This document shows positions 2,864 to 45,926 of a stretch of 64,000 nt of DNA, in pieces. The translations under genes and the position numbers were made by a program. Source of the stretch: Oscillospiraceae bacterium (GTDB taxonomy: Bacteria; Bacillota; Clostridia; Oscillospirales; CAG-272); NCBI GenBank assembly GCA_015064745.1, contig SVRR01000001.1:23330-87329 (forward strand), written 5' to 3'. The first letter of the stretch is position 1. Every line of letters begins with the position of its first letter. The notes beneath the pieces are model-generated. The model ran no database searches. It worked only from the letters and a program-made list of their open reading frames with translations, and had not been told where the DNA came from.

Positions 2864-3667
2864 TTAATTTTTTAAGAATTCTCTCATTACGTCGCCGATG
2901 CCGTCCATGATGTAGGTTGGCTTTTTCTCGGATGCTTCGGCATCCTCTACCGTTCCTTCGCCGGAAAGGACAAGCACGGTATCCACGCCCGCGTTTACGC
3001 CCGATGCGATATCGGTATATACACGGTCTCCGATCATCAAGGCGTCCTCGGCAGCAAGCCCCGTCTTCTCTAAGGCGAGAAGCAGCATTTCGGGGTTGGG
3101 CTTGCCAATAAAACGCGGCTCTCTGCCCGTTGCCGTCTTCAAAATGCCCGCGATGGAACCGCAATCGGGCACGGAGCCGTACCAGGTAGGACAAACGTAG
3201 TCGGGGTTGGTCGCGATATAGTCTACACCTCGTCCAAGCAATATGCAGGCATCCTCCAGCTTCCCGAAGGTCAGCTCGGTGTCAAAGCCCATCACGAGAA
3301 CCTTGACGTCATCCGCAAGCTCGGTCACTGTACGGATCCCCGCGCTGTTTAGTTGATCGCGGAAGGAGGTTGTACCAAAAACGTACATTTTGGTGTCTTC
3401 GGGATAATGCGCCTTTAAATATACGATAGTGGCATCGGTCGAGGTCAAAAATTCGTCTTCCGTTGCGGCGATGCCCATTGCCGCAAGCTTTTCCACGTAT
3501 GCTTTGACACTCCTTGAGGAGTTATTGGTCAAATACAAATAGTGCGCGCCACGCTCCTTGACAGCGGTGAGAAAGGGGATGGTATCGGGAAATACGGTCT
3601 TATCAAGATAGATGGTACCGTCCATATCAAGAAAAAACAACTTTTTTTGAGAGATCGGTTTTTGCAT
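2864..3667 (-). CDS. HAD superfamily subfamily IIA hydrolase (NagD-like sugar phosphatase)
   Basis: 267 aa. FFLDMDGTIY carries the DxDGT nucleophile motif, with LTNNSS and GDRVYTDI motifs as well. Confidence 0.85.
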   Translation of the reverse strand: MQKPISQKKLFFLDMDGTIYLDKTVFPDTIPFLTAVKERGAHYLYLTNNSSRSVKAYVEKLAAMGIAATEDEFLTSTDATIVYLKAHYPEDTKMYVFGTTSFRDQLNSAGIRTVTELADDVKVLVMGFDTELTFGKLEDACILLGRGVDYIATNPDYVCPTWYGSVPDCGSIAGILKTATGREPRFIGKPNPEMLLLALEKTGLAAEDALMIGDRVYTDIASGVNAGVDTVLVLSGEGTVEDAEASEKKPTYIMDGIGDVMREFLKN

Positions 3668-4731: not shown

Positions 4732-5439
4732 ATGAAAAAACATGGGATTATCACACGGATTTTTAACCTTATGGGACGCTTGTTCCGTAAGAACGAGGTC
4801 TATTATATTGGCGGTGCCGACACTTTGCCTCGTCCGTTGAGCGCTGAGGAAGAGCAGGAGGCGCTTTTGCACCTTGAGGACGATCCGCACGCGCGAGATC
4901 TTCTTGTCGAGCACAATCTGCGGCTCGTCGCGTACATTGCCAAGCGCTTTGAAAGCACCGGGGCGGGGACAGAGGAGCTGATCTCTATCGGTACGTTGGG
5001 TCTTATGAAGGCGATAGCCACATTCCGCGCGGATAAGGGAATTAAGCTTGCTACCTATGCTTCGCGCTGTATTGAAAATGAAATTTTGATGTTTTTGCGC
5101 AAGGCAAGCGCAAGAAGGGGAGAGGTCTCCATCGACGAGCCACTTCATACCGACGGCGACGGTGGCGAGCTTTTACTTTCGGATGTTCTCGGAAGCGATG
5201 CCGATACGGTGGGAAGGGAGCTTGAAGAAGAGGAGGAGCGGACAATCGTGAGAAATATGGTTGCCGCCCTCACCGCGCGGGAGCGCGAGATCATAGAGCT
5301 GCGTTTTGGTCTTACGGGCGGGAGAGAACTCACGCAAAAGGAGGTTGCAGATCGCTTGCATATTTCCCAGTCCTACATATCGCGCTTAGAAAAGCGCATT
5401 ATGGCACAGTTGAAAGAAAAACTCAAAGCTTGTCTTTAG
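4732..5439 (+). CDS. sigE: Sporulation sigma factor SigE (pro-sigma-E)
   Basis: MKKHGIITRIFNLMGRLFRKNEVYYIGGADTLPRPLSAEEE...RLVAYIAKRF...ATYASRCIENEILMFLRK aligns by eye with B. subtilis pro-sigma-E, including the pro-sequence. ATG 4732 is preferred over TTG 4723. Confidence 0.9.
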   Translation: MKKHGIITRIFNLMGRLFRKNEVYYIGGADTLPRPLSAEEEQEALLHLEDDPHARDLLVEHNLRLVAYIAKRFESTGAGTEELISIGTLGLMKAIATFRADKGIKLATYASRCIENEILMFLRKASARRGEVSIDEPLHTDGDGGELLLSDVLGSDADTVGRELEEEEERTIVRNMVAALTAREREIIELRFGLTGGRELTQKEVADRLHISQSYISRLEKRIMAQLKEKLKACL

Positions 5440-5719: not shown

Positions 5720-6406
5720 ATGCGAGAGCCGGATCAGCGCCTGCGCGCGGCGGCAGAGCTCGTCAGGCAGGGAGCAGTGTTCGCCGATATCGGTACCGAT
5801 CATGCTCTCCTGCCTGTCTTTTTGTGTAAGATGGGACGGGTTTCGCGTGCCGTTGCCGCAGATATCAACATAGGCCCCTTAGCCGCCGCGCGTACGCAGG
5901 TGGAAAACGAGGGGCTTTCCCATATGGTAAAGCTCGTTTTGACCGACGGTCTTGCAGGGCTTGAACGAGAGGGACTCACCGATATCGCCGTTTGTGGCAT
6001 GGGCGGTGAGCTTATCGTCTCTATTCTTGATCGCGCCCCCTTTATAAAAAACGCAGGTATTCGTCTTATATTACAGCCCATGACCCATGCTTCAGACCTT
6101 CGGTACTATTTGGCGCGGACAGGTTTTCGCATCGTTGAAGAACGTACTGCTTTCGCCAAGGGCAAATGCTATTTTTGCCTTGCCGCCGAATACACGGGAG
6201 AATGCTACACGCTGACGCGGACTGAGGCTTCGTTTGGATGCCGTCATACGCGCAAACCGAGCGATGCCCTTCTTTCCCTCGTTCAGAAAGAAAAACGCGG
6301 TGTCGAAAAGAAATGTCGCGGTCTTCGCAAGGGTGGGAGACCCGATGAAGGCGAGGAAGAATATCTTTCCGATCTTTGCGCCTTGATAAAGGAGTTAGAA
6401 GTATGA
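5720..6406 (+). CDS. trmK: tRNA (adenine22-N1)-methyltransferase TrmK
   Basis: ATG 5720. RLRAAAELVRQGAVFADIGTDHALLP... fits the TrmK/YqfN pattern, and the gene is followed by nif3 as in the Bacillus yqfN-yqfO pair. Confidence 0.8.
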   Translation: MREPDQRLRAAAELVRQGAVFADIGTDHALLPVFLCKMGRVSRAVAADINIGPLAAARTQVENEGLSHMVKLVLTDGLAGLEREGLTDIAVCGMGGELIVSILDRAPFIKNAGIRLILQPMTHASDLRYYLARTGFRIVEERTAFAKGKCYFCLAAEYTGECYTLTRTEASFGCRHTRKPSDALLSLVQKEKRGVEKKCRGLRKGGRPDEGEEEYLSDLCALIKELEV

Positions 6407-7161
6407 CCGTACGAGAGCTTTATGATCTTCTTCATCTCAAAATTTCTCCGTCCTTGTCCGAAATTTGGGATAACGACGGGCTTATGTGTTGCCCCGATCC
6501 CGAAAGGGAGGTGCAACGCGTTCTTTTTGCGCTTGACGTTACGGACAAGGTCGTCGAGCAGGCACTTCGAACCGAGACGGATGTCATTATTTCGCATCAT
6601 CCTTTCGTTTTCGCGAAGCTTGGGTCGCTCACCACGGACACACCTGTGGGCAACAGGCTCGTGCGTCTTATAAAGGAAGGCGTGAGTGTCTTTTCGTTTC
6701 ATACCCGCTTCGACCGCGTGGAAGGTGGGGTGAATGATGTGTTGGCGGAGGCGCTTTCTCTTTCGGACGTTACCTGTCTTGGCGAAGGAGAAGCTTCGCT
6801 CGGTCGTATCGGGTCGCTTTCCTCTCCCGTGTCACTTGCCGAATTTGCACAGACGGTCAAGCATGCGCTTGGTACGCCTTTTGTGCAGGTGTGGGATGCG
6901 GAACGTCCCGTTTTCCGTGTAGCCGTCGTCGGCGGTGAAGGGAAGGATCTTATCGAAGCCGCGCGCGCGGCGGGCGCAGACACCTATCTTTCGGGCAGAC
7001 TTGGCTATCACGCCATGCAGGATGCGGCGCTTAACCTCATGGAAGCCGGGCATTATTTTACCGAGCGTCCTTCCGTATCGGCATTAGAGAGCCTTGTAAA
7101 AGCGTTGCTTCCCAAGGTGGAAACAGAAATTTATACCCCTAATCCCCTAACCGTCTATTGA
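6403..7161 (+). CDS. Nif3-like dinuclear metal centre protein (YqfO family)
   Basis: ATG 6403 overlaps the trmK stop (ATGA). It has the IISHHPFVF and EAGHYFTE motifs. Confidence 0.85.
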   Translation: MTVRELYDLLHLKISPSLSEIWDNDGLMCCPDPEREVQRVLFALDVTDKVVEQALRTETDVIISHHPFVFAKLGSLTTDTPVGNRLVRLIKEGVSVFSFHTRFDRVEGGVNDVLAEALSLSDVTCLGEGEASLGRIGSLSSPVSLAEFAQTVKHALGTPFVQVWDAERPVFRVAVVGGEGKDLIEAARAAGADTYLSGRLGYHAMQDAALNLMEAGHYFTERPSVSALESLVKALLPKVETEIYTPNPLTVY

Positions 7162-7186
7162 CTTTTTTGTAAAAAGACAGTATAAT
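7158..7186 (+). promoter_or_regulatory. Consensus sigma-A promoter of tyrS
   Basis: TTGACT (7158-7163), 17 nt spacer, TATAAT (7181-7186). Only about 41 nt separate the -10 from the tyrS ATG, so there is no room for a T-box leader. Confidence 0.6.
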
Positions 7187-7227
7187 ATACTCTATGAAAC
7201 GAATTCCCAAGAGGAAAGGACATAATC

Positions 7228-8619: not shown

Positions 8620-8695
8620 TGGAGCTGGTAATCGGACTCGAACCGATGACCTGTTGATTACGAATCAACTGCTCTACCAACTGAGCCATACCAGC
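8620..8695 (-). tRNA. tRNA-Thr (anticodon CGU)
   Basis: Reverse strand reads GCTGGTATGGCTCAGTTGGTAGAGCAGTTGATTCGTAATCAACAGGTCATCGGTTCGAGTCCGATTACCAGCTCCA, 76 nt. The acceptor stem is 7 bp, the GTTCGAGTC T-loop is present, the anticodon loop is TTCGTAA and CCA is encoded. A wobble-rich hairpin plus U7 terminator lies at about 8586-8617. Confidence 0.9.
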
Positions 8696-8705
8696 AAGCC
8701 TAATT

Positions 8706-19215: not shown

Positions 19216-19253
19216 ATTTTGGCGTGTTATGTGAAAAAAGTTGATAAAAACCC

Positions 19254-19282
19254 TTGCATATCGAAAAAAAACATTGTATAAT
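19254..19282 (+). promoter_or_regulatory. Sigma-A promoter upstream of the EF-G paralog
   Basis: TTGCAT (19254-19259), 17 nt spacer, TATAAT (19277-19282). Confidence 0.5.
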
Positions 19283-19345
19283 AAAAGCAGGTAATTCGAA
19301 AACGGTTATCTGCTTATTTTTATTTTTGTAAAGGAGACCCTCGAG

Positions 19346-36835: not shown

Positions 36836-38143
36836 ATGGCTATGTTGCAAGAAAGGGAAGAAACGCTTTCCCGAGAAGAACTTGAAAAATTACAAAGCGA
36901 ACGCCTTGTTTGGCAGGTAAAACGCATGTACGAGCGCGTAGAGTGCTTTCGTAACCGTATGGATGAAGCAGGCTTGACGCCTGACGATATCCACGGCATC
37001 GAAGATCTTTCAAAGCTCCCCTTCTCCTATAAGAAGGACTTGCGTGATTACTACCCTTATGGGCTGTTTGCGGAGCCACTCAAAAACATTCGCCGCATCC
37101 ACGCATCCAGCGGTACAACCGGAAAGCGTATCGTTGTCGGCTATACCGAAAACGATCTTAAAATGTGGTCGGATTGCTTTGCGCGAATGCTTGCCGCTAT
37201 TGGTGTGACGGACGAGGATATCGTGCAGGTTTCCTACGGTTACGGTCTCTTTACGGGCGGTCTCGGCGCGCACGACGGTGCCTCGCGCATCGGTGCCACG
37301 GTCGTTCCGATGTCATCGGGCAACACTCCCCTTCAAATTCAGAATTTGATCGACTTCGGTGCGACGGTCATTTGTTGCACGCCCTCCTACGCTCTTTATA
37401 TCGGTGAGGAGATCGAGCGCGCGGGTCTTAAAGATCAGCTGAAGCTTAAGGCGGGCATCTTCGGTGCCGAGCCTTGGACGGAGGAAATGCGCCATACCAT
37501 TGAAGAGAAGCTCGGTATTAAGGCATACGATATCTACGGCCTTTCCGAAATTTTAGGTCCGGGTGTCGGCTGTGAATGCGAATGCCAAGCGGGTATGCAC
37601 GTTTGGGAGGATCACTTTATTCCGGAGATTATTGATCCCGATACCTGTAAGGTGCTTCCGAAGGGTGCGACGGGTGAGCTTGTTTTCACCACCATCACGA
37701 AGGAAGGCTTTCCTGTTATCCGTTACCGCACACGCGACATTTGCTCGCTGGATTATACTCCCTGCAAGTGTGGCAGAACGCACGTACGCATGAAGAAGCC
37801 GACGGGCAGAAGCGACGATATGCTTATTATCCGCGGTGTTAACGTGTTCCCCTCGCAAATTGAGGAGGTGCTCCTCTCTATCGGCGGCGGTGAGATAACG
37901 CCCAATTACTTTATTACGGTCGACCGCGTGGATAACAACGACACCTTTGACCTTGATGTCGAGATGAGCGAGGCGCTCTTCTCGGATGACGTTAAATCTA
38001 TTGCAACGATTGAGAAGCAAATAGCAGAGAAGCTTCGCTCCGCGCTCGGGCTTGGCGTGAGAGTACACCTTGTCAATCCCAAGACCATCGCGCGTAGCGA
38101 GGGAAAAGCAAAGCGCGTGCTTGATAAGCGTAAGCTTTCTTAA
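36836..38143 (+). CDS. paaK: Phenylacetate--CoA ligase family protein
   Basis: 435 aa. [17 protein letters not shown]...[17 protein letters not shown] fits the PaaK pattern. Confidence 0.85.
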
Positions 38144-38171
38144 ACGCAAGCCAGTCGAAAGGAGAGAAACC

Positions 38172-38603
38172 ATGATTGTTAATCAGCTTTCCGCATTCAT
38201 AGAAAACAAAGCGGGGCGTCTTGCCGAGATCGCGGAGACGCTCGCAGAAAACAATATTGATTTGAGCGCGGTGTCTCTTGCCGATTCCGCCGATTACGGT
38301 GTCATTCGTATGCTCGTCAACGACCCTGAGCGTGCCGCGCGTGTTTTGAAGGAGTCGGGTGTCATCTGCAAGATCACTAAGGTGCTCGCGGTTGCCATGG
38401 AGGATGCACCGGGCGGATTTGCGCGCGTTTTGCACCTGCTCAAAAACCAAAGCCACGAGATCAAGTATATGTACGCTTGTATCAGCCGCCACGAGGGCAA
38501 GGCGCTTATGGTTTTTAGCGTCGAGGACGTAGAAGCAGCGGAAGCGCTGATTAAAGGCACCTCGGCAGGCGACGTTCACCCCGCGGATATTTACAGAATT
38601 TAA
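38172..38603 (+). CDS. ACT domain-containing protein
   Basis: ATG 38172, 143 aa with a tandem ACT-like layout (MIVNQLSAFIENKAGRLAEIAETLAENNIDL...). It is the usual last gene of iorAB-paaK clusters. Confidence 0.7.
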   Translation: MIVNQLSAFIENKAGRLAEIAETLAENNIDLSAVSLADSADYGVIRMLVNDPERAARVLKESGVICKITKVLAVAMEDAPGGFARVLHLLKNQSHEIKYMYACISRHEGKALMVFSVEDVEAAEALIKGTSAGDVHPADIYRI

Positions 38604-38613
38604 ACCCAAACAA

Positions 38614-38646
38614 AAAAGGCTTTTCGCAATTGCGAAAAGCCTTTTT
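38614..38646 (+). repeat. Direct repeat copy 1: 33-nt palindromic terminator hairpin
   Basis: AAAAGGCTTTTCGCAATTGCGAAAAGCCTTTTT is identical to 40038-40070. The stem GGCTTTTCGC / GCGAAAAGCC has an AATT loop and is flanked by an A-run and a T-run. It lies 10 nt after the ACT gene stop. Confidence 0.9.
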
Positions 38647-40037
38647 TCGGTTCGGCGCAGATTCCTTCGAGAACGGCACGTGGGAAAGAGACCTTATTCA
38701 CGAGTATACTCATTTTGAGGAAGGCACGGACGAATACGAGAAGCTTGGCGTCTTCTTGGCGGACAAGAGTCTCACCGTCGACACGAAGAATGGCAAGCGC
38801 TCACTCGCTGAAGTCGCGGCAGAGACCGTCTTCCGTAAGGGCTACGGATTTACCGTCGAAGAGATGAATGATATCACCGAAAGGAAGAACGCGAAGAAAC
38901 CGCTGACCGCGGCGGAAGAGGCTGCGTATTCCGTCTTCAACGACGAGCTCGTGGCACACTCCGCGGAGTATCTGCTTGGCAACGAGGCGTTTATTGATAA
39001 GCTCGTCGCCAAGGATGCGCCGCTTGCGCGCAAAGTCTTCGACAAGCTCGTAGACGTCTGCAAGACGATCGGCGGCAAGGGCGCAAGCAAAACGCTGAAG
39101 ACCGCGCAGAAGCTGTACATCAAAGCCGCCGAGAAGAGTGGCAACACCCGTCTTGCAAAGTACATTCTCTCCCACGCACCTGAACTTGAAGAGGAAGAAA
39201 GCCTTGACAGCGAGGAGAAGGTGCAGTATAATAGAAAAGGATTATACAAACAGATTCCGAAGAAAGAATACGCTATTATTAGTAGCCGTATTATGGAAGA
39301 TAATTCGAGATATATGGCTCATAATCAAGAACTTCCGAGATACGGAAAAGCAAGAAGCGCCGACTACTTCTATGTGTACGAAAATTTTGCACCGGGCAAC
39401 TTTGGAGTCTTGAAGCAAATAAAAATCACGGACGCAAACAGAGAATATATCGCTTCTATTGAAGCGAAAATAGGAGAAAACAATGGCGAACAAACTATCG
39501 GAAGCACAAGCGAACTTAATCGAGTGCTTGAAGTTCTTAAAACTAGAACAAGACGCAATCGTGGTAATAATGCTCTTGATTCCGAAGGACGAGCAAATAG
39601 CGGAAATGGCGGAGTATCTTCTGGAGAATCCGCAAGCGACGGAATCGGACATTCTCAAAAAAGCAACGGAAATCTCCGAAATGTAAAATTCTCCCGCAAA
39701 GCCCAGCGTCCCGATGGCGCAACCTATCAGATTTCGGACGGACAGGTCAAACGCTTGATCTCAGGTCTTGCGAAAGGCAAAAAATATTCTAAGGCGGATG
39801 CGGACGAGGCGATCCACGAGATCCTTTTGAATAGTCTGTATTCCGACGACGAGCGTGTGATGTTACGCGGTAAAGCGCGGAAAGATGTCGTCAGCATGAT
39901 CCTGCAAAGCCTCAACACGGAAGACTTTACAAAACGCGACGCCACAGCGCGGAAGGTCGCGGACTACATCGTAGAGCACGCGGTGTTGGAAGGCTCCCTT
40001 GAGGATATCAATGTACAGATCGAATTTTTTTCAAACG
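38647..40037 (+). pseudogene. Internal fragment of a phage or conjugative-element-type multidomain (polyvalent-like) protein with a zincin HExxH motif
   Basis: The frame is open across the whole insert, but the only start is a TTG inside the hairpin and the C-terminus runs into the second hairpin. The sequence includes ...GTWERDLIHEYTHFEEGTDEY..., ...KFSRKAQRPDGATYQISDGQVKRL... and ...ATARKVADYIVEHAVLEG.... There is no RBS or promoter. The family assignment is from memory only. Confidence 0.4.
39483..39686 (+). CDS. Small hypothetical helical protein (67 aa) nested in an alternate frame
   Basis: AGGAG (39472-39476), 6 nt, then ATG. MANKLSEAQANLIECLKFLKLEQDAIVVIMLLIPKDEQIAEMAEYLLENPQATESDILKKATEISEM looks like an ordinary amphipathic-helix protein. 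The long frame over the same bases is a G/S/N/R-rich low-complexity stretch. Confidence 0.45.
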   Translation: MANKLSEAQANLIECLKFLKLEQDAIVVIMLLIPKDEQIAEMAEYLLENPQATESDILKKATEISEM

Positions 40038-40070
40038 AAAAGGCTTTTCGCAATTGCGAAAAGCCTTTTT
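40038..40070 (+). repeat. Direct repeat copy 2: 33-nt palindromic terminator hairpin
   Basis: Identical to 38614-38646. It lies 7 nt from the stop of the convergent crp/fnr gene. The left edge shares an imperfect CAAAC extension with copy 1. Confidence 0.9.
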
Positions 40071-40077
40071 ATTGTTT

Positions 40078-40740
40078 TCATAGATATTTACGAAGCTTTG
40101 TTTTATCGAGAATGCGAATGTCCCCTCTGCCGCTTTCGAGGATCCCCTCATAAGAGAAGGTGCGGAGCATTCGAGTGACGACCTCTCGCGCCGAGCCCAT
40201 ATATTTGGCAATTTGCTCGTGTGTAAGCTTAAGAGTATCGCTATGCCTTCTTGCTGTTTCGTCAAGCAAGAAAATAGCAAGGCGTTTTTCAATGCTCATA
40301 AAGAGGATCTGCTCAAACGACCACATGGTTTCGGAAAAATGACTTGCTGTTAGCTCCAAGGCGTAGTTTTTGACGTATATACTTTCCTCGACCAGCTTTC
40401 CGAGCGTGCGGCTTCCGATCAGAAGACATTCGCTGTCGGAATCTGCTTCCACCATCACGTCAAAGGTAATGGCACGAAGCACGCATGTGGCGGAAAGAAT
40501 ACAAATATCTCCCGCATAAAGACGGAACAAGGTGACCTCCTTGCCGTCCTCGGAGAGAAAATATGTGCGAAGTCCGCCGGAGCGCACGACTATAGCGCCC
40601 GTACATTCGTTGGGATCGTGCACCACGTGTCCTTTGCGGTAGGTGATCTCGGTCGTGTCATCGCATAGGGCTTTCCTTTGCGTGGTTGTCAGCTTGTCCC
40701 AAAAAGGGAAGTATTCGGCAAAAAAGCTTTCGTAGTTCAT
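40078..40740 (-). CDS. Crp/Fnr family transcriptional regulator
   Basis: 220 aa with a cNMP-binding beta-barrel pattern (RKGHVVHDP...GAIVVRSGGLRTYF) and a C-terminal HTH (LTHEQIAKYMGSAREVVTRMLR). Confidence 0.8.
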   Translation of the reverse strand: MNYESFFAEYFPFWDKLTTTQRKALCDDTTEITYRKGHVVHDPNECTGAIVVRSGGLRTYFLSEDGKEVTLFRLYAGDICILSATCVLRAITFDVMVEADSDSECLLIGSRTLGKLVEESIYVKNYALELTASHFSETMWSFEQILFMSIEKRLAIFLLDETARRHSDTLKLTHEQIAKYMGSAREVVTRMLRTFSYEGILESGRGDIRILDKTKLRKYL

Positions 40741-40769
40741 TCTTTTCTCCTAATGGCTTGCTTGTCTGC

Positions 40770-42095
40770 TCATTCTTTATTTTTTACAACGGAAACCTCT
40801 TCTATGCCGTAATAGAGAAATGCCTTTACCGTGTCCGCTTCAATGCGCTCACCGCATACGGCGATAGGAACAGCAGGGGGGCAGGAGGCGGCGATCTCGG
40901 CGTAGATACGACCCTCAGCATCCTTTACGGGGATGCGTTCCTTCTTCGCGAACAGTGCGTCGCGGATAGAGAGAAGGGGCGTGCCAAGGCGTGGCGGTGG
41001 CGGTTGCGAAACGGCATCGGCTTGCTTGCCAAATGCAAACAAGGCTGTCTTTAAAATGTCAAAATCCGATGGATCGTTTTCGGCAGAAGTCATAAATACA
41101 AGGTGCGTTTTGTCGCAAAACTCGCACTCGATTCCATGCTCTCGCACCACTTCCGCAAGTGCTTCGGCATGCGGTGAAAGCAGTACGATCTTAAGCGGCT
41201 CTGATGGCAAAACGGTAAATCCTGCTTGCGAAAGTGCCGTCTTCGTATCCTCGGTGAGCGACACTGCTTTTTTAAGTCGTTCTCCGTATCCCTCGGCAAG
41301 CACTCGGTTAGCAAGGTCAAGCGAAGATAGCGTCAGGTAGGAGGGGCTGGTAGAGGAGAAGAGGGAAACAGCATCCTTGACATCCGAAAACTCGTCCTCA
41401 TACCCTTTGGCAATATGTAAATATGCGCCGCCCGTCAGCACAGGAAGCGTCTTGTGCGCGGAATCGGCACACATGGCGGCACCTAAATGGATAGGGTGCA
41501 TCGACGGATTGAGAAAAGCAAAATACGCGCCGTGCGCGTTGTCGACAAGGAGCGGAACGCCATGCTTTTTACATACGGCGGCAATGCCCGCGATATCCCA
41601 GATTTCGCCAAGATAGCTCGGAGAGGTGATATAAACGGCAAAGGGGGCATTAGCCTCAATGGCACGCGCTACGTCGTTTGGTGTCATCACGCCGCTATAC
41701 ACCGTTTCGGCATTGTCGGGCAGCATAAAGGTGACAGGGATATCTAGGAGCGCTACGCCGTGCAAAAAGGCGCGATGTGCATTTCTGGAAGCAAGAAGGT
41801 TAGGTCTTTCCGGCGTGCGGTAGCGTGTCGATGCCAGTGCCAGCATTGCTTCGATGGCAGCGGTAGAGCCGCCTGTCAAATAGACGGTACGCCCTGTCTG
41901 AAAAAGAAGGGAAGCGTTTCTCTCGCTTTCTCCAATGATTCCATACGCTTCGCTTAAAACGTCAGCCCCCTTGACCTCGGTGATGTCAAGCGCTTCTATA
42001 CCCAAGGGTCCTTTTCCTTTGTGACCGGGCATGTGAAAACGTACACCGTTCTTTTCGGCATAGCCTTTTACGAAATCGTAGATGGGAGTATTCAT
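40770..42095 (-). CDS. PLP-dependent Orn/Lys/Arg decarboxylase family protein
   Basis: ATG 42095 overlaps the scfB stop (ATGA). MNTPIYDFVKGYAEKNGVRFHMPGHKGKG... is typical of the YaaO/SpeA-like fold-I decarboxylases. SAHKTLP is the putative PLP-lysine motif. Confidence 0.75.
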   Translation of the reverse strand: MNTPIYDFVKGYAEKNGVRFHMPGHKGKGPLGIEALDITEVKGADVLSEAYGIIGESERNASLLFQTGRTVYLTGGSTAAIEAMLALASTRYRTPERPNLLASRNAHRAFLHGVALLDIPVTFMLPDNAETVYSGVMTPNDVARAIEANAPFAVYITSPSYLGEIWDIAGIAAVCKKHGVPLLVDNAHGAYFAFLNPSMHPIHLGAAMCADSAHKTLPVLTGGAYLHIAKGYEDEFSDVKDAVSLFSSTSPSYLTLSSLDLANRVLAEGYGERLKKAVSLTEDTKTALSQAGFTVLPSEPLKIVLLSPHAEALAEVVREHGIECEFCDKTHLVFMTSAENDPSDFDILKTALFAFGKQADAVSQPPPPRLGTPLLSIRDALFAKKERIPVKDAEGRIYAEIAASCPPAVPIAVCGERIEADTVKAFLYYGIEEVSVVKNKE

Positions 42096-43468
42096 GCGTC
42101 CTCGGATTCGGCAACGCCCATCATAACGGCGCATTCAATACGCTTTTTGAAAAGCTCACAGCCATACTTGTAAACGCCGCCGACGCTTCCTGTCGCATGA
42201 TAGGCGTTTGCGGCACAGCCGCCGGAGCAGTAAAGCTTCGCCCAGCAATCACGGCATTCCTCGCGTGCGTAGGCGTTACAGGAACGAAATTCGTCCTGAC
42301 GCTCAGGATGGGTAACACCGTCCCAAACGTTACCGAGACTATATGTTTGATCACCGACGAATTGATGGCAGGGGAAAAGCTCACCCCAGGGAGTGACCGA
42401 CATATACTCCGTGCCGGAGCCGCATCCCGTAATGCGCTTGTAGATGCAAGGCCCGTTTTTGAGGTCTAGCATGTAGTGATAGAAGGTAAAGGGACGCCCT
42501 TCGCGACGGCGCTTGATCATTTCCTTTGCCAAAATCTCATATTGCTCGAAAAGAATGGGAAGATCTGCTTCGGTCAAAGCGCAAGGGTCGTCGGGAGCGC
42601 AAACCACGGGCTCCATGCTGAGCTCGGTAAAGCCGAGGTCTGCCATGTGCAAAATGTCGTTGGTAAAATCGGTGTTGTGATGGGTGTAAGTACCGCGCAT
42701 ATAGTAGCCCTTCCCGCCGCGCATTTCGACAAAGCGCTTGAACTTGGGAAGGATGAGGTCATAGCTGCCTCGTCCCATATAGTCGCGGCGGAAGCGATCG
42801 TGTACCTCGGGGCGTCCGTCGAGACTTAAAACCACATTACTCATCTCGCGGTTGAGAAACTCTGTCGTCTCATCGTCAAGAAGCACCCCGTTGGTGGTGA
42901 GGGTAAAGCGGAAGTTTTTGTTGTGCTCTTTTTCGATGCTTCGCGCATAAGCGACGAGCTCTTTTACCACGTCAAGATTCATCAAGGGCTCACCGCCGAA
43001 GAAGTCTACCTCAAGGTTGCGGCGCGTGCCGGAATTCGCGATCAAAAAGTCAAACGCCTGCTTTCCGACCTCAAAGGACATTAAGGCTCGCTCGCCTTGG
43101 TACTTTCCTTGGCTTGCAAAGCAATAGGAGCAGTTGAGGTTACAGGTGTGTGCCACGTGAAGGCAAAGCGCCTTTACAACGTTGGTTTTTGCCTTATAGT
43201 CGTAGGCAAGAGACTCGTATTTATCCTCGGAGAAAAGCTTGCCCGCTTTTTCAAGCGCGCGGATATCCTCTATGCAGTCAAGGATCTCCGCTTTTGTGAC
43301 CGTTTCGTCCGAAGGGTATTTTGTGAGGATGTCCGCGACGATCTCATCGGGAGATTTGTCTTTGTATAAGGCAATAATATCATAGGCGACCTCGTCTACC
43401 GCGTGTACCGAGCCTGACGCCGTATCAAGAACGATGTTGTAGCCGTTAAGCTTGTATTGATGTACCAT
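42092..43468 (-). CDS. scfB: Radical SAM/SPASM thioether-forming SCIFF peptide maturase
   Basis: 458 aa with CNLNCSYCF (CxxxCxxC) and a C-terminal SPASM cysteine cluster (CGSG...CHQF...CRDCWAKLYCSGGCAANA). It sits directly downstream of a SCIFF precursor. Confidence 0.9.
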   Translation of the reverse strand: MVHQYKLNGYNIVLDTASGSVHAVDEVAYDIIALYKDKSPDEIVADILTKYPSDETVTKAEILDCIEDIRALEKAGKLFSEDKYESLAYDYKAKTNVVKALCLHVAHTCNLNCSYCFASQGKYQGERALMSFEVGKQAFDFLIANSGTRRNLEVDFFGGEPLMNLDVVKELVAYARSIEKEHNKNFRFTLTTNGVLLDDETTEFLNREMSNVVLSLDGRPEVHDRFRRDYMGRGSYDLILPKFKRFVEMRGGKGYYMRGTYTHHNTDFTNDILHMADLGFTELSMEPVVCAPDDPCALTEADLPILFEQYEILAKEMIKRRREGRPFTFYHYMLDLKNGPCIYKRITGCGSGTEYMSVTPWGELFPCHQFVGDQTYSLGNVWDGVTHPERQDEFRSCNAYAREECRDCWAKLYCSGGCAANAYHATGSVGGVYKYGCELFKKRIECAVMMGVAESEDA

Positions 43469-45757: not shown

Positions 45758-45848
45758 GACAGTTTTCCGAAAAAAATTAAAAAATATTTTTCCCCCTGTT
45801 TTGGCGGACGGAAATTTTGGACAAAGTGAAAAAAGTTATCAAATCCCC

Positions 45849-45877
45849 TTGCGCTTCTAAAAATAATCGTTTATAAT
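45849..45877 (+). promoter_or_regulatory. Sigma-A promoter of htpG
   Basis: TTGCGC (45849-45854), 17 nt spacer, TATAAT (45872-45877). A 12-bp palindrome AGTATTAATACT lies at 45883-45894, just downstream. Confidence 0.45.
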
Positions 45878-45926
45878 ATTATAGTATTAATACTTAGTAG
45901 TAATGCCTTAAAGGATGGTAAACAAA

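Follow-up and report, generated by a model that had tools for sequence, protein, structure and literature searches.

A phage-derived gene fragment between duplicated terminator hairpins is a real insertion polymorphism in an Oscillospiraceae chromosome

The window analyzed here is a 64-kb stretch from the assembled genome of an Oscillospiraceae bacterium (contig SVRR01000001.1, positions 23,330 to 87,329). Between an ACT-domain gene and the convergent gene of a crp/fnr-family regulator it carries a 1.4-kb block of DNA, with a copy of the same terminator hairpin at each end. The block is a real, fixed insertion whose DNA comes from a phage. It is of a known kind, a cryptic phage remnant lying at a terminator between direct repeats, here in an unusually reduced form. 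What looked suspicious in a metagenome-assembled genome (MAG) is a real insertion polymorphism and is neither an artefact nor a new class of mobile element. The block is foreign and phage-derived, relatives carry the empty site, the terminator is truly duplicated, and a related fragment occupies the same site in another species. Contigs and loci used for comparison are given by their L numbers.

The 33-nt sequence AAAAGGCTTTTCGCAATTGCGAAAAGCCTTTTT stands at 38614-38646 and again at 40038-40070, a distance of 1424 nt between the two copies. There is no further copy in the window, and 0 matches are expected in shuffled sequences. Copy 1 belongs to a 36-nt palindrome without mismatches (38612-38647, A6...T6), and copy 2 is slightly shorter (A4...T5). 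The folding energy of both copies on either strand is -21 to -29 kcal/mol (z about -6), and both are picked up by the terminator scan; Rfam returned only sub-threshold hairpin hits for the region. With its stable, GC-containing stem-loop, its flanking A and T runs and its position after convergent stop codons, the hairpin has the features of an intrinsic bidirectional terminator. The ACT stop codon (38601-38603) is 8 nt upstream of the palindrome, and the crp stop codon (40078-40080) lies 7 nt beyond copy 2. This last distance, the identity of the two 33-nt copies and the CAAAC extension to the left of each (38607-38611 and 40032-40036) had all been described in a first-pass annotation made from the sequence alone, and they were confirmed. 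The repeat in fact exceeds 33 nt, reaching 39/40 nt with one mismatch and one indel, and both copies align to positions 2042-2087 of the empty-site locus L007, which gives a duplicated target of about 45 nt. Further to the left, the 27 nt preceding copy 2 resemble the ACT 3' end and spacer of L081 (p about 0.0008) and those of L007 (p about 0.017). They show no resemblance to the window's own spacer (p 0.22), and the ACT-end similarity to the left of the second hairpin of L081 is not significant. The resemblance of this flank to the ACT 3' end, perhaps reaching left to about 40010, is suggestive only.

Exact-protein look-ups with Crp and ACT retrieved 13 metagenome contigs, which come from about ten JGI and ENA samples and from two assemblers. 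Both junctions are spanned by four of them (L001, L002, L003 and L193) and one junction by the other nine; the insert is found in all 13 contigs of this species, and those with the window-type allele match the window at 100% identity. MEGAHIT k141 assemblies, whose k-mers are far longer than the repeat, are among the junction-spanning contigs. Because the junctions are reproduced in independent contigs of this kind, an assembly chimera, which the first-pass annotation had listed among the possible origins, is rejected. It is true that the source is a MAG and that a 507-aa open reading frame (ORF) is annotated here by NCBI, which might point to a chimera or to a native gene with its own start. 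On the other hand, the junctions recur in MEGAHIT k141 and JGI contigs, the annotated TTG start lies inside the hairpin loop, the end of the ORF lies inside the antisense crp, and relatives show empty sites. Both explanations are scarcely credible.

Relatives were located by PaaK and Crp searches. Their proteins are 88-96% identical to those of the window, yet the synonymous divergence (dS) is about 0.8-1.5, and on the strength of this dS they are regarded as separate species. The ACT-crp interval is found in three states among them. A single hairpin without an insert is present in L007, L173 and L174, and the hairpin of L174, GGCTTTTCGC-ATT-GCGAAAAGCC, is the same variant as that in the window. 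An unrelated lipoprotein/SGNH-like gene with its own terminators is present in L087 and L175-177. The polyvalent-gene fragment is present in the window and in L081, where a 2.9-kb homologous fragment occupies the same site in the same orientation, between one perfect and one degenerate copy of the hairpin. The ancestral single hairpin of L007, L173 and L174 bears out the earlier view that a lone copy would be an ordinary shared bidirectional terminator, and it is the empty site that the first-pass annotation had proposed to look for. As a separate observation, the gene of the alternative allele is complete with its own start (L087 2420-3640, L175 1-800) and occurs in two non-sister lineages.

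The 1391 bp between the hairpin copies are open in one frame. The GC content is 39% in the central stretch and about 55% in the flanks. Homologs of the insert, at 43-76% identity, carry the domains ART-PolyVal, LPD3 and PBECR5 (PF18760, PF18798, PF18814), the defining domains of the polyvalent proteins (Iyer et al. 2017, PMC5512222). The insert itself has no match in Pfam or PHROGs, and a tblastn search with it returned nothing from the GenBank phage and PLSDB plasmid collections. Its closest full-length relative is on the IMG/VR contig L178, where the gene order is sigma-like regulator, terminase, portal, major head protein, virion protein and then the polyvalent ORF; in L190, capsid and holin genes lie upstream of the polyvalent gene. 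The ORF of L178 runs 536 aa further upstream than the insert, and the copy in L081 runs about 85 codons further downstream, to its natural stop; the insert therefore comes from the interior of the gene and is truncated on either side. Judged by homology and gene order, the donor is a tailed phage and the block is foreign, a piece of the gene for a large, virion-associated polyvalent protein. The initial reading of the block, as a foreign internal piece of a large phage or conjugative-type protein with an IHEYTHF motif, accordingly holds: the motif is real (HEYTH at 38699-38713), and the polyvalent domains that it had suggested searching for are carried by the homologs.

Three parts can be distinguished within the insert (Table 1). 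Region A begins 16 codons before the HExxH helix, and only 16-17 residues precede HEYTH, so that the zincin-like MPTase domain lacks its N-terminal part and is not intact; an N-terminal helix, a three-stranded sheet, the HExxH helix and a Glu helix would make up the whole. The close similarity of module B to the L167 fragment stands between far more diverged flanks, and the module is absent from L081, from L178 and from L194, a variant within the same species; this pattern fits an exchange of modules. Two observations on the homologs may be added. Residues 377-500 of the L081 ORF (about nt 3210-3585), downstream of the internal promoter described below, comprise a full ART-PolyVal ADP-ribosyltransferase domain (68 bits), a potentially toxic enzyme retained in the chromosome. 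In L184 (10774-11814) and at the left end of L171, a reverse transcriptase gene (RVT_1, about 350 aa), which may derive from a diversity-generating retroelement, lies near the polyvalent gene.

The first-pass annotation had also held that the block contains neither a promoter nor a ribosome-binding site (RBS), and here it has to be corrected, as both are listed in Table 1. The promoter-like site is the only such consensus site within 38000-40800. Each of the six homologous loci (the window, L081, L178, L167, L170 and L171) has the motif TTGAC-N17-TATAAT in the same place, for example at 2669-2697 in L081 and 19152-19180 in L178, within a linker of the form (L/I)D...YN(R/K)K. The 17-nt spacer varies among the six loci, and the linker residues over the site could be encoded in many other ways. 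The conserved TTGAC(A)-N17-TATAAT therefore looks like an internal promoter hidden in coding sequence. About 250 nt downstream of it starts an intact ORF of 67 aa. Counterparts of this small ORF are present in L167 (6767-6964), L171 (6557-6754), L170 (6365-6562) and L187 (about 203-406), and it falls in 39 clusters of 66-67-aa proteins. In L191 it is free-standing and in tandem (6386-6586, 7001-7204), in a chromosomal island between gdh and purE. Over the 198-nt overlap, the ratio of nonsynonymous to synonymous rates (omega) is 0.18-0.34 in the frame of the small ORF versus 1.1-5.3 in the polyvalent frame, and the polyvalent frame never gains a stop. Because omega is low in the small-ORF frame only, the small ORF is read as a constrained gene overprinted on a linker of the polyprotein, and by this measure it is under purifying selection. 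The AlphaFold2 model of the 67-aa protein has four helices and a predicted local distance difference test score (pLDDT) of 91.5; Foldseek against PDB gave no match for it at E<=0.001, and Pfam and PHROGs gave none for the ORF. About 350 nt beyond the small ORF stands the second terminator copy, where it would halt promoter-driven transcription before antisense entry into crp. By these predicted features the remnant is not inert, since it keeps a conserved promoter and an intact small ORF reading toward copy 2.

Table 1. Features at the ACT-crp interval, in window coordinates
Feature	Start	End	Strand	Description
ACT-domain gene	38172	38603	+	Pfam ACT_8 (9.8e-26); closes the ior/paaK operon; called in JGI and ENA contigs as a gene of 143 aa
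Repeat copy 1	38607	38647		CAAAC and perfect 36-nt palindrome; now the intrinsic terminator of ACT; homolog of the one hairpin in the empty sites of L007 and L174
Filler CGGT	38648	38651	+	4 nt at the left junction; neither host nor phage in a three-way alignment with L178
Region A	38652	39238	+	78.7% nt identity to L178 and 74.7% to the L081 insert; omega 0.12-0.27
Promoter-like site, sigma-70 type	39204	39232	+	TTGACA-N17-TATAAT, 12/12 consensus match; in linker LDSEEKVQYN
Module B	39226	39673	+	39% GC; 89% DNA identity to the L167 fragment
67-aa ORF	39483	39686	+	Intact; RBS GGAG at 39473-39476; nested in another frame of the polyvalent ORF
Region C	39687	40025	+	58% aa identity to L081 4291-4608; truncated some 85 codons short of the L081 stop at 4881
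Repeat copy 2	40026	40070		Spacer-like TTTTTCAAACG and hairpin; terminator now serving crp and the internal promoter
crp/fnr-family regulator gene	40078	40740	-	Convergent with ACT; Pfam HTH_Crp_2, Crp, cNMP_binding

By comparing the fragments of the window and L081 with each other and with phage L178, the history of the insert may be traced in part. The two fragments lie at the same site in the same orientation, and their left junctions are 12 codons apart. In quartets with three outgroups, the grouping of the window with L081 received a bootstrap of 0.1-1.6%, and phage L178 falls inside the group. The low omega given for region A holds, without any stop, even in the 104 codons adjoining the left junction, while the host dS is about 1.2. 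Interiors that are not sisters, together with a low omega and no stops, mean that the fragments are not explained by simple decay from one ancestral copy, and a single ancestral fragment decaying neutrally is rejected. Their sequences imply instead that the fragments were either acquired separately or overwritten by recombination with phages. Two contigs of the same species, set against window 39035-39239 and L178 19070-19855, bear on the second possibility. L194 (JGI 3300024270) is of the window type up to 39035 and from there is 100% identical to L178 over 786 nt (L178 19070-19855), an identity that runs to the end of the L178 contig. L197 (JGI 3300018495) has a patch of the L178 type of 90 nt, at 39130-39219. 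The exact matches at the crossovers in L194 and L197 are 16, 64 and 19 nt only, and because they are so short, real recombination is favored over assembly error. These metagenome contigs suggest that the interior of the remnant has been exchanged with the co-occurring phage L178 by homologous recombination, and that this exchange is ongoing.

The 5' ends of the fragments show a further regularity. Those of L081 (2083), the window (38652) and L167 (about 5930) correspond to aa 524, 536 and about 546 of the L178 ORF, that is, they fall within 22 codons, just before the HExxH helix, in a phage protein of >950 aa. The three fragments derive from different phage lineages and stand at different sites in their hosts. 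In the corresponding region of L178, neither a promoter nor a hairpin nor any other DNA feature was found, and an origin from RNA or cDNA with the 5' end set by a phage promoter is rejected, as L178 has no promoter upstream of the boundary. For the 390-nt fragment of L187, the flank duplication is not significant (p 0.5).

As to how the duplication arose, the first-pass annotation had offered remnants of attachment (att) sites and illegitimate capture beside the chimera already dismissed. The first two are both still alive, neither is proven, and we lean towards the former: with roughly even confidence, the block is a strongly reduced remnant of prophage type with an att-like duplication of the terminator. 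On this model, a temperate phage or a derivative would have integrated at the gene 3' end and dyad-symmetric terminator between ACT and crp. Integration would have produced att-type direct repeats by duplicating the terminator with a little of its flank (33 nt identical, about 45 nt overall), and each convergent gene would thereby have kept its own terminator. Nearly the whole prophage would later have been lost, leaving behind a piece of the polyvalent gene, the last gene by the host junction. Both the action of an integrase and the later deletions are inferred. In keeping with this, the repeats consist of a gene 3' flank and a dyad-symmetric hairpin, the direct repeats at both ends equal the one copy at the relatives' empty site, and the site is occupied in two species. 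In L188-L190, the polyvalent gene is the final prophage gene before the host genes. A parallel is provided by L167, in which a 2.85-kb island with a polyvalent fragment and a 101-aa membrane ORF lies between imperfect direct repeats of about 48 nt (p about 0.001). These repeats (5769-5812 and 8655-8702) are made of the last 12 nt of tRNA-Ser(GGA) and its downstream hairpin, and from their sequence they appear as an att-like signature, a parallel architecture at a classical integrase target.

Several points weigh against an att-type origin. As the first-pass annotation had noted, the block has no integrase, transposase or terminal inverted repeats, and nothing phage-like, integrase or otherwise, is seen in the 64 kb of the window outside 38645-40042. 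No relative examined has an intact prophage at the ACT-crp site. The hairpin core was found in neither exact nor degenerate form in the genome, metagenome and viral collections, and no phage contig carries it or an attP with it; the related phage contigs, on which no integrase was found, are partial. The left junction falls inside an ORF that runs uninterrupted in the phage, and it is flush with the repeat in the window and in L081, with the 4-nt filler in the former. On the att model the endpoints of the deletions must therefore have stopped by chance exactly at the repeat, and the window needs a second flush deletion on the right. In addition, the phage-side sequence beside copy 2 differs between the window and L081, and the junctions look illegitimate, with the CGGT filler in the window and TTTTTTATC|TTCCACG in L081. 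The competing model of a one-step illegitimate capture draws on the same junctions. Phage DNA present in the cell would have served to mend a break or stalled fork at the 36-nt palindrome, whether through end joining or through template switching. Cleavage of the cruciform or hairpin, or staggered nicks flanking it, could have caused the break, and fill-in of the staggered ends would have duplicated the palindrome. The flush repeat-insert-repeat architecture, the filler together with a junction microhomology of <=1-2 nt, the lack of a common phage-side arm in the window and L081, the lack of an integrase in the window and on the related phage contigs, and the perfect and very stable palindrome all agree with capture. 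It would, however, need independent hits in two species at the same chromosomal site, in the same orientation and in the same region of the phage gene. The third fragment, with its similar 5' end, adjoins a tRNA gene with tRNA-derived repeats, a classical integrase signature, and the repeat includes a non-palindromic left flank (CAAAC and spacer) that pure cruciform resolution does not explain. We know of no bacterial mechanism that yields duplications of 40-60 nt. Taken together, capture is somewhat unlikely.

A different kind of explanation is that selection has kept the promoter, the small ORF and the flanking terminators as a functional cassette, which might be a moron-like gene or a homology pad for module exchange or integration between phage and chromosome, refreshed from phages. 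The conserved consensus promoter, the intact small ORF under purifying selection, the stop-free fragment despite a host dS of about 1.2, the same-species alleles that are mosaic with phage L178, and the insert in 13/13 contigs of the species would all suit such a cassette. Yet L081 lacks module B and the small ORF, region A has neither a start codon nor an RBS, three related species lost the insert or never had it, and neither Pfam, PHROGs nor the fold search gave a function; moreover, the arrival of the block is left unexplained. Selection for a cassette is thus distinctly improbable as the explanation. Far less probable still is that the 33-mer is a mobile or high-copy palindrome like the repetitive extragenic palindromic (REP) elements, or the end of a hairpin element (IS200/IS605, integron attC or group IIC intron target). 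A perfect palindrome that occurs twice within 1.4 kb might call such elements to mind, but the window has only two copies in 64 kb, all copies among the 199 fetched loci are at this locus, and the genome, metagenome and viral collections gave no match. In relatives, the orthologous hairpin is conserved as a terminator present once, and no TnpA, IntI or intron RNA was found. As the 33-mer does not occur outside this locus in the window, the 199 loci or the three collections, a REP-like repeat is rejected.

Other element classes were rejected as well. For a transposon or insertion sequence (IS), there is no transposase domain, the sole inverted repeat is the hairpin pair, and the duplication measures 33-45 nt versus up to about 15 bp; the earlier statement that it is too long for a transposon target-site duplication is upheld. 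For an integron cassette, an attC would be imperfect, with R''/R' GTTRRRY cores and extrahelical bases, and an integron integrase would lie nearby; the palindrome is perfect, GTTRRRY is absent and no recombinase was found. A CRISPR unit would need at least three regularly spaced repeats with spacers of 25-50 nt, but there are two copies at the distance given above and the window holds no array; no search for cas genes was made. These two readings, and those of IS200/IS605 and a group IIC intron, were rejected from the sequence alone.

Cryptic prophage remnants flanked by attL/attR direct repeats, such as the cryptic prophages of E. coli K-12, are the known system closest to the att-type remnant that we favor. 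As in these, phage DNA lies at a gene 3' end and terminator, the direct repeats correspond to a single copy in empty-site relatives, and presence varies among related genomes. Unlike them, the insert is only 1.4 kb long, is an internal piece of one gene and has no integrase; it has no att arm in common with L081, and both junctions are flush with the repeats and illegitimate-looking. Phage morons, described by Hendrix and colleagues, are promoter-gene-terminator cassettes in phage genomes. The block is like them as a self-contained unit in phage-derived DNA, made up of a strong promoter, a small ORF and, downstream, an intrinsic terminator. It is unlike them in that promoter and ORF are enclosed by a larger reading frame, with which they overlap, and in that the terminator is a copy of the host's. 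Overprinted, out-of-frame genes are also known in phages, for example lambda Rz/Rz1. As in that pair, one open frame encloses another, the 67-aa ORF being entirely contained and bearing the selective constraint; the outer frame here, in contrast, is a linker in a polyvalent polyprotein. De Paepe et al. in 2014 are said to have described recombination between infecting phages and defective prophages. The L194 and L197 alleles, in which a chromosomal fragment is mixed with the co-occurring phage L178, are similar to this, except that the recombination is here deduced from metagenome contigs and the resident homology is one gene fragment rather than a prophage. With the polyvalent proteins (PMC5512222), the homologs have in common that they combine zincin-like MPTase, ART-PolyVal, LPD3 and PBECR5 in very large phage proteins and that modules are shuffled between relatives. 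The window copy differs in being cut at both ends and in matching no Pfam model. No internal consensus promoter or nested small ORF was seen to be described in that paper.

Beyond the insertion itself, three by-products may be of greater weight: a sigma-70-type promoter, by all appearances perfectly conserved, concealed in the linker of phage polyvalent-protein genes; an overprinted 67-aa gene, apparently under constraint, that is also free-standing in bacterial chromosomes; and contig-level evidence that a 1.4-kb chromosomal remnant suffices for sequence exchange between phage and host. Should there be a mechanism behind the clustering of 5' ends, this would indicate that phage DNA can be fixed beside terminators by a route not yet described. 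It is conceivable, although doubtful, that the arrangement of a polyvalent piece with a cut 5' end between two terminators recurs as a unit that is generated specifically and is maintained, and is not random debris. The basis for this would be the 5' ends within 22 codons, the two kinds of host site, the internal promoter in each fragment and the recombination with phages. Were it true, the unit could offer phages a homology pad in the chromosome, for integration without an integrase or for the exchange of modules; alternatively, it could be a decoy or immunity cassette, kept by the host, that expresses the nested small protein.

The host genes around the insert have a composite history of their own. 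PaaK of L081 (289-1587) is only 76% identical to that of the window (36836-38143), while the adjacent ACT and Crp are 94% and 91% identical. Between the window and L087, dS likewise differs between neighboring genes, being 0.35 for PaaK and 0.81 for Crp. From these sequence comparisons, the ACT/crp neighborhood is seen to be mosaic. Downstream of crp (window 40770-43468 and onward) lie a gene of the Orn/Lys/Arg decarboxylase family, a radical-SAM SCIFF maturase gene and a SCIFF peptide gene, and this SCIFF/decarboxylase neighborhood is conserved in relatives. Elsewhere in the window, two promoter-like segments of 53 nt (GTGAAAAAAGTT...TTGTATAATA), at 19231-19283 and 45826-45878, are 74% identical to each other at a distance of 26.6 kb.

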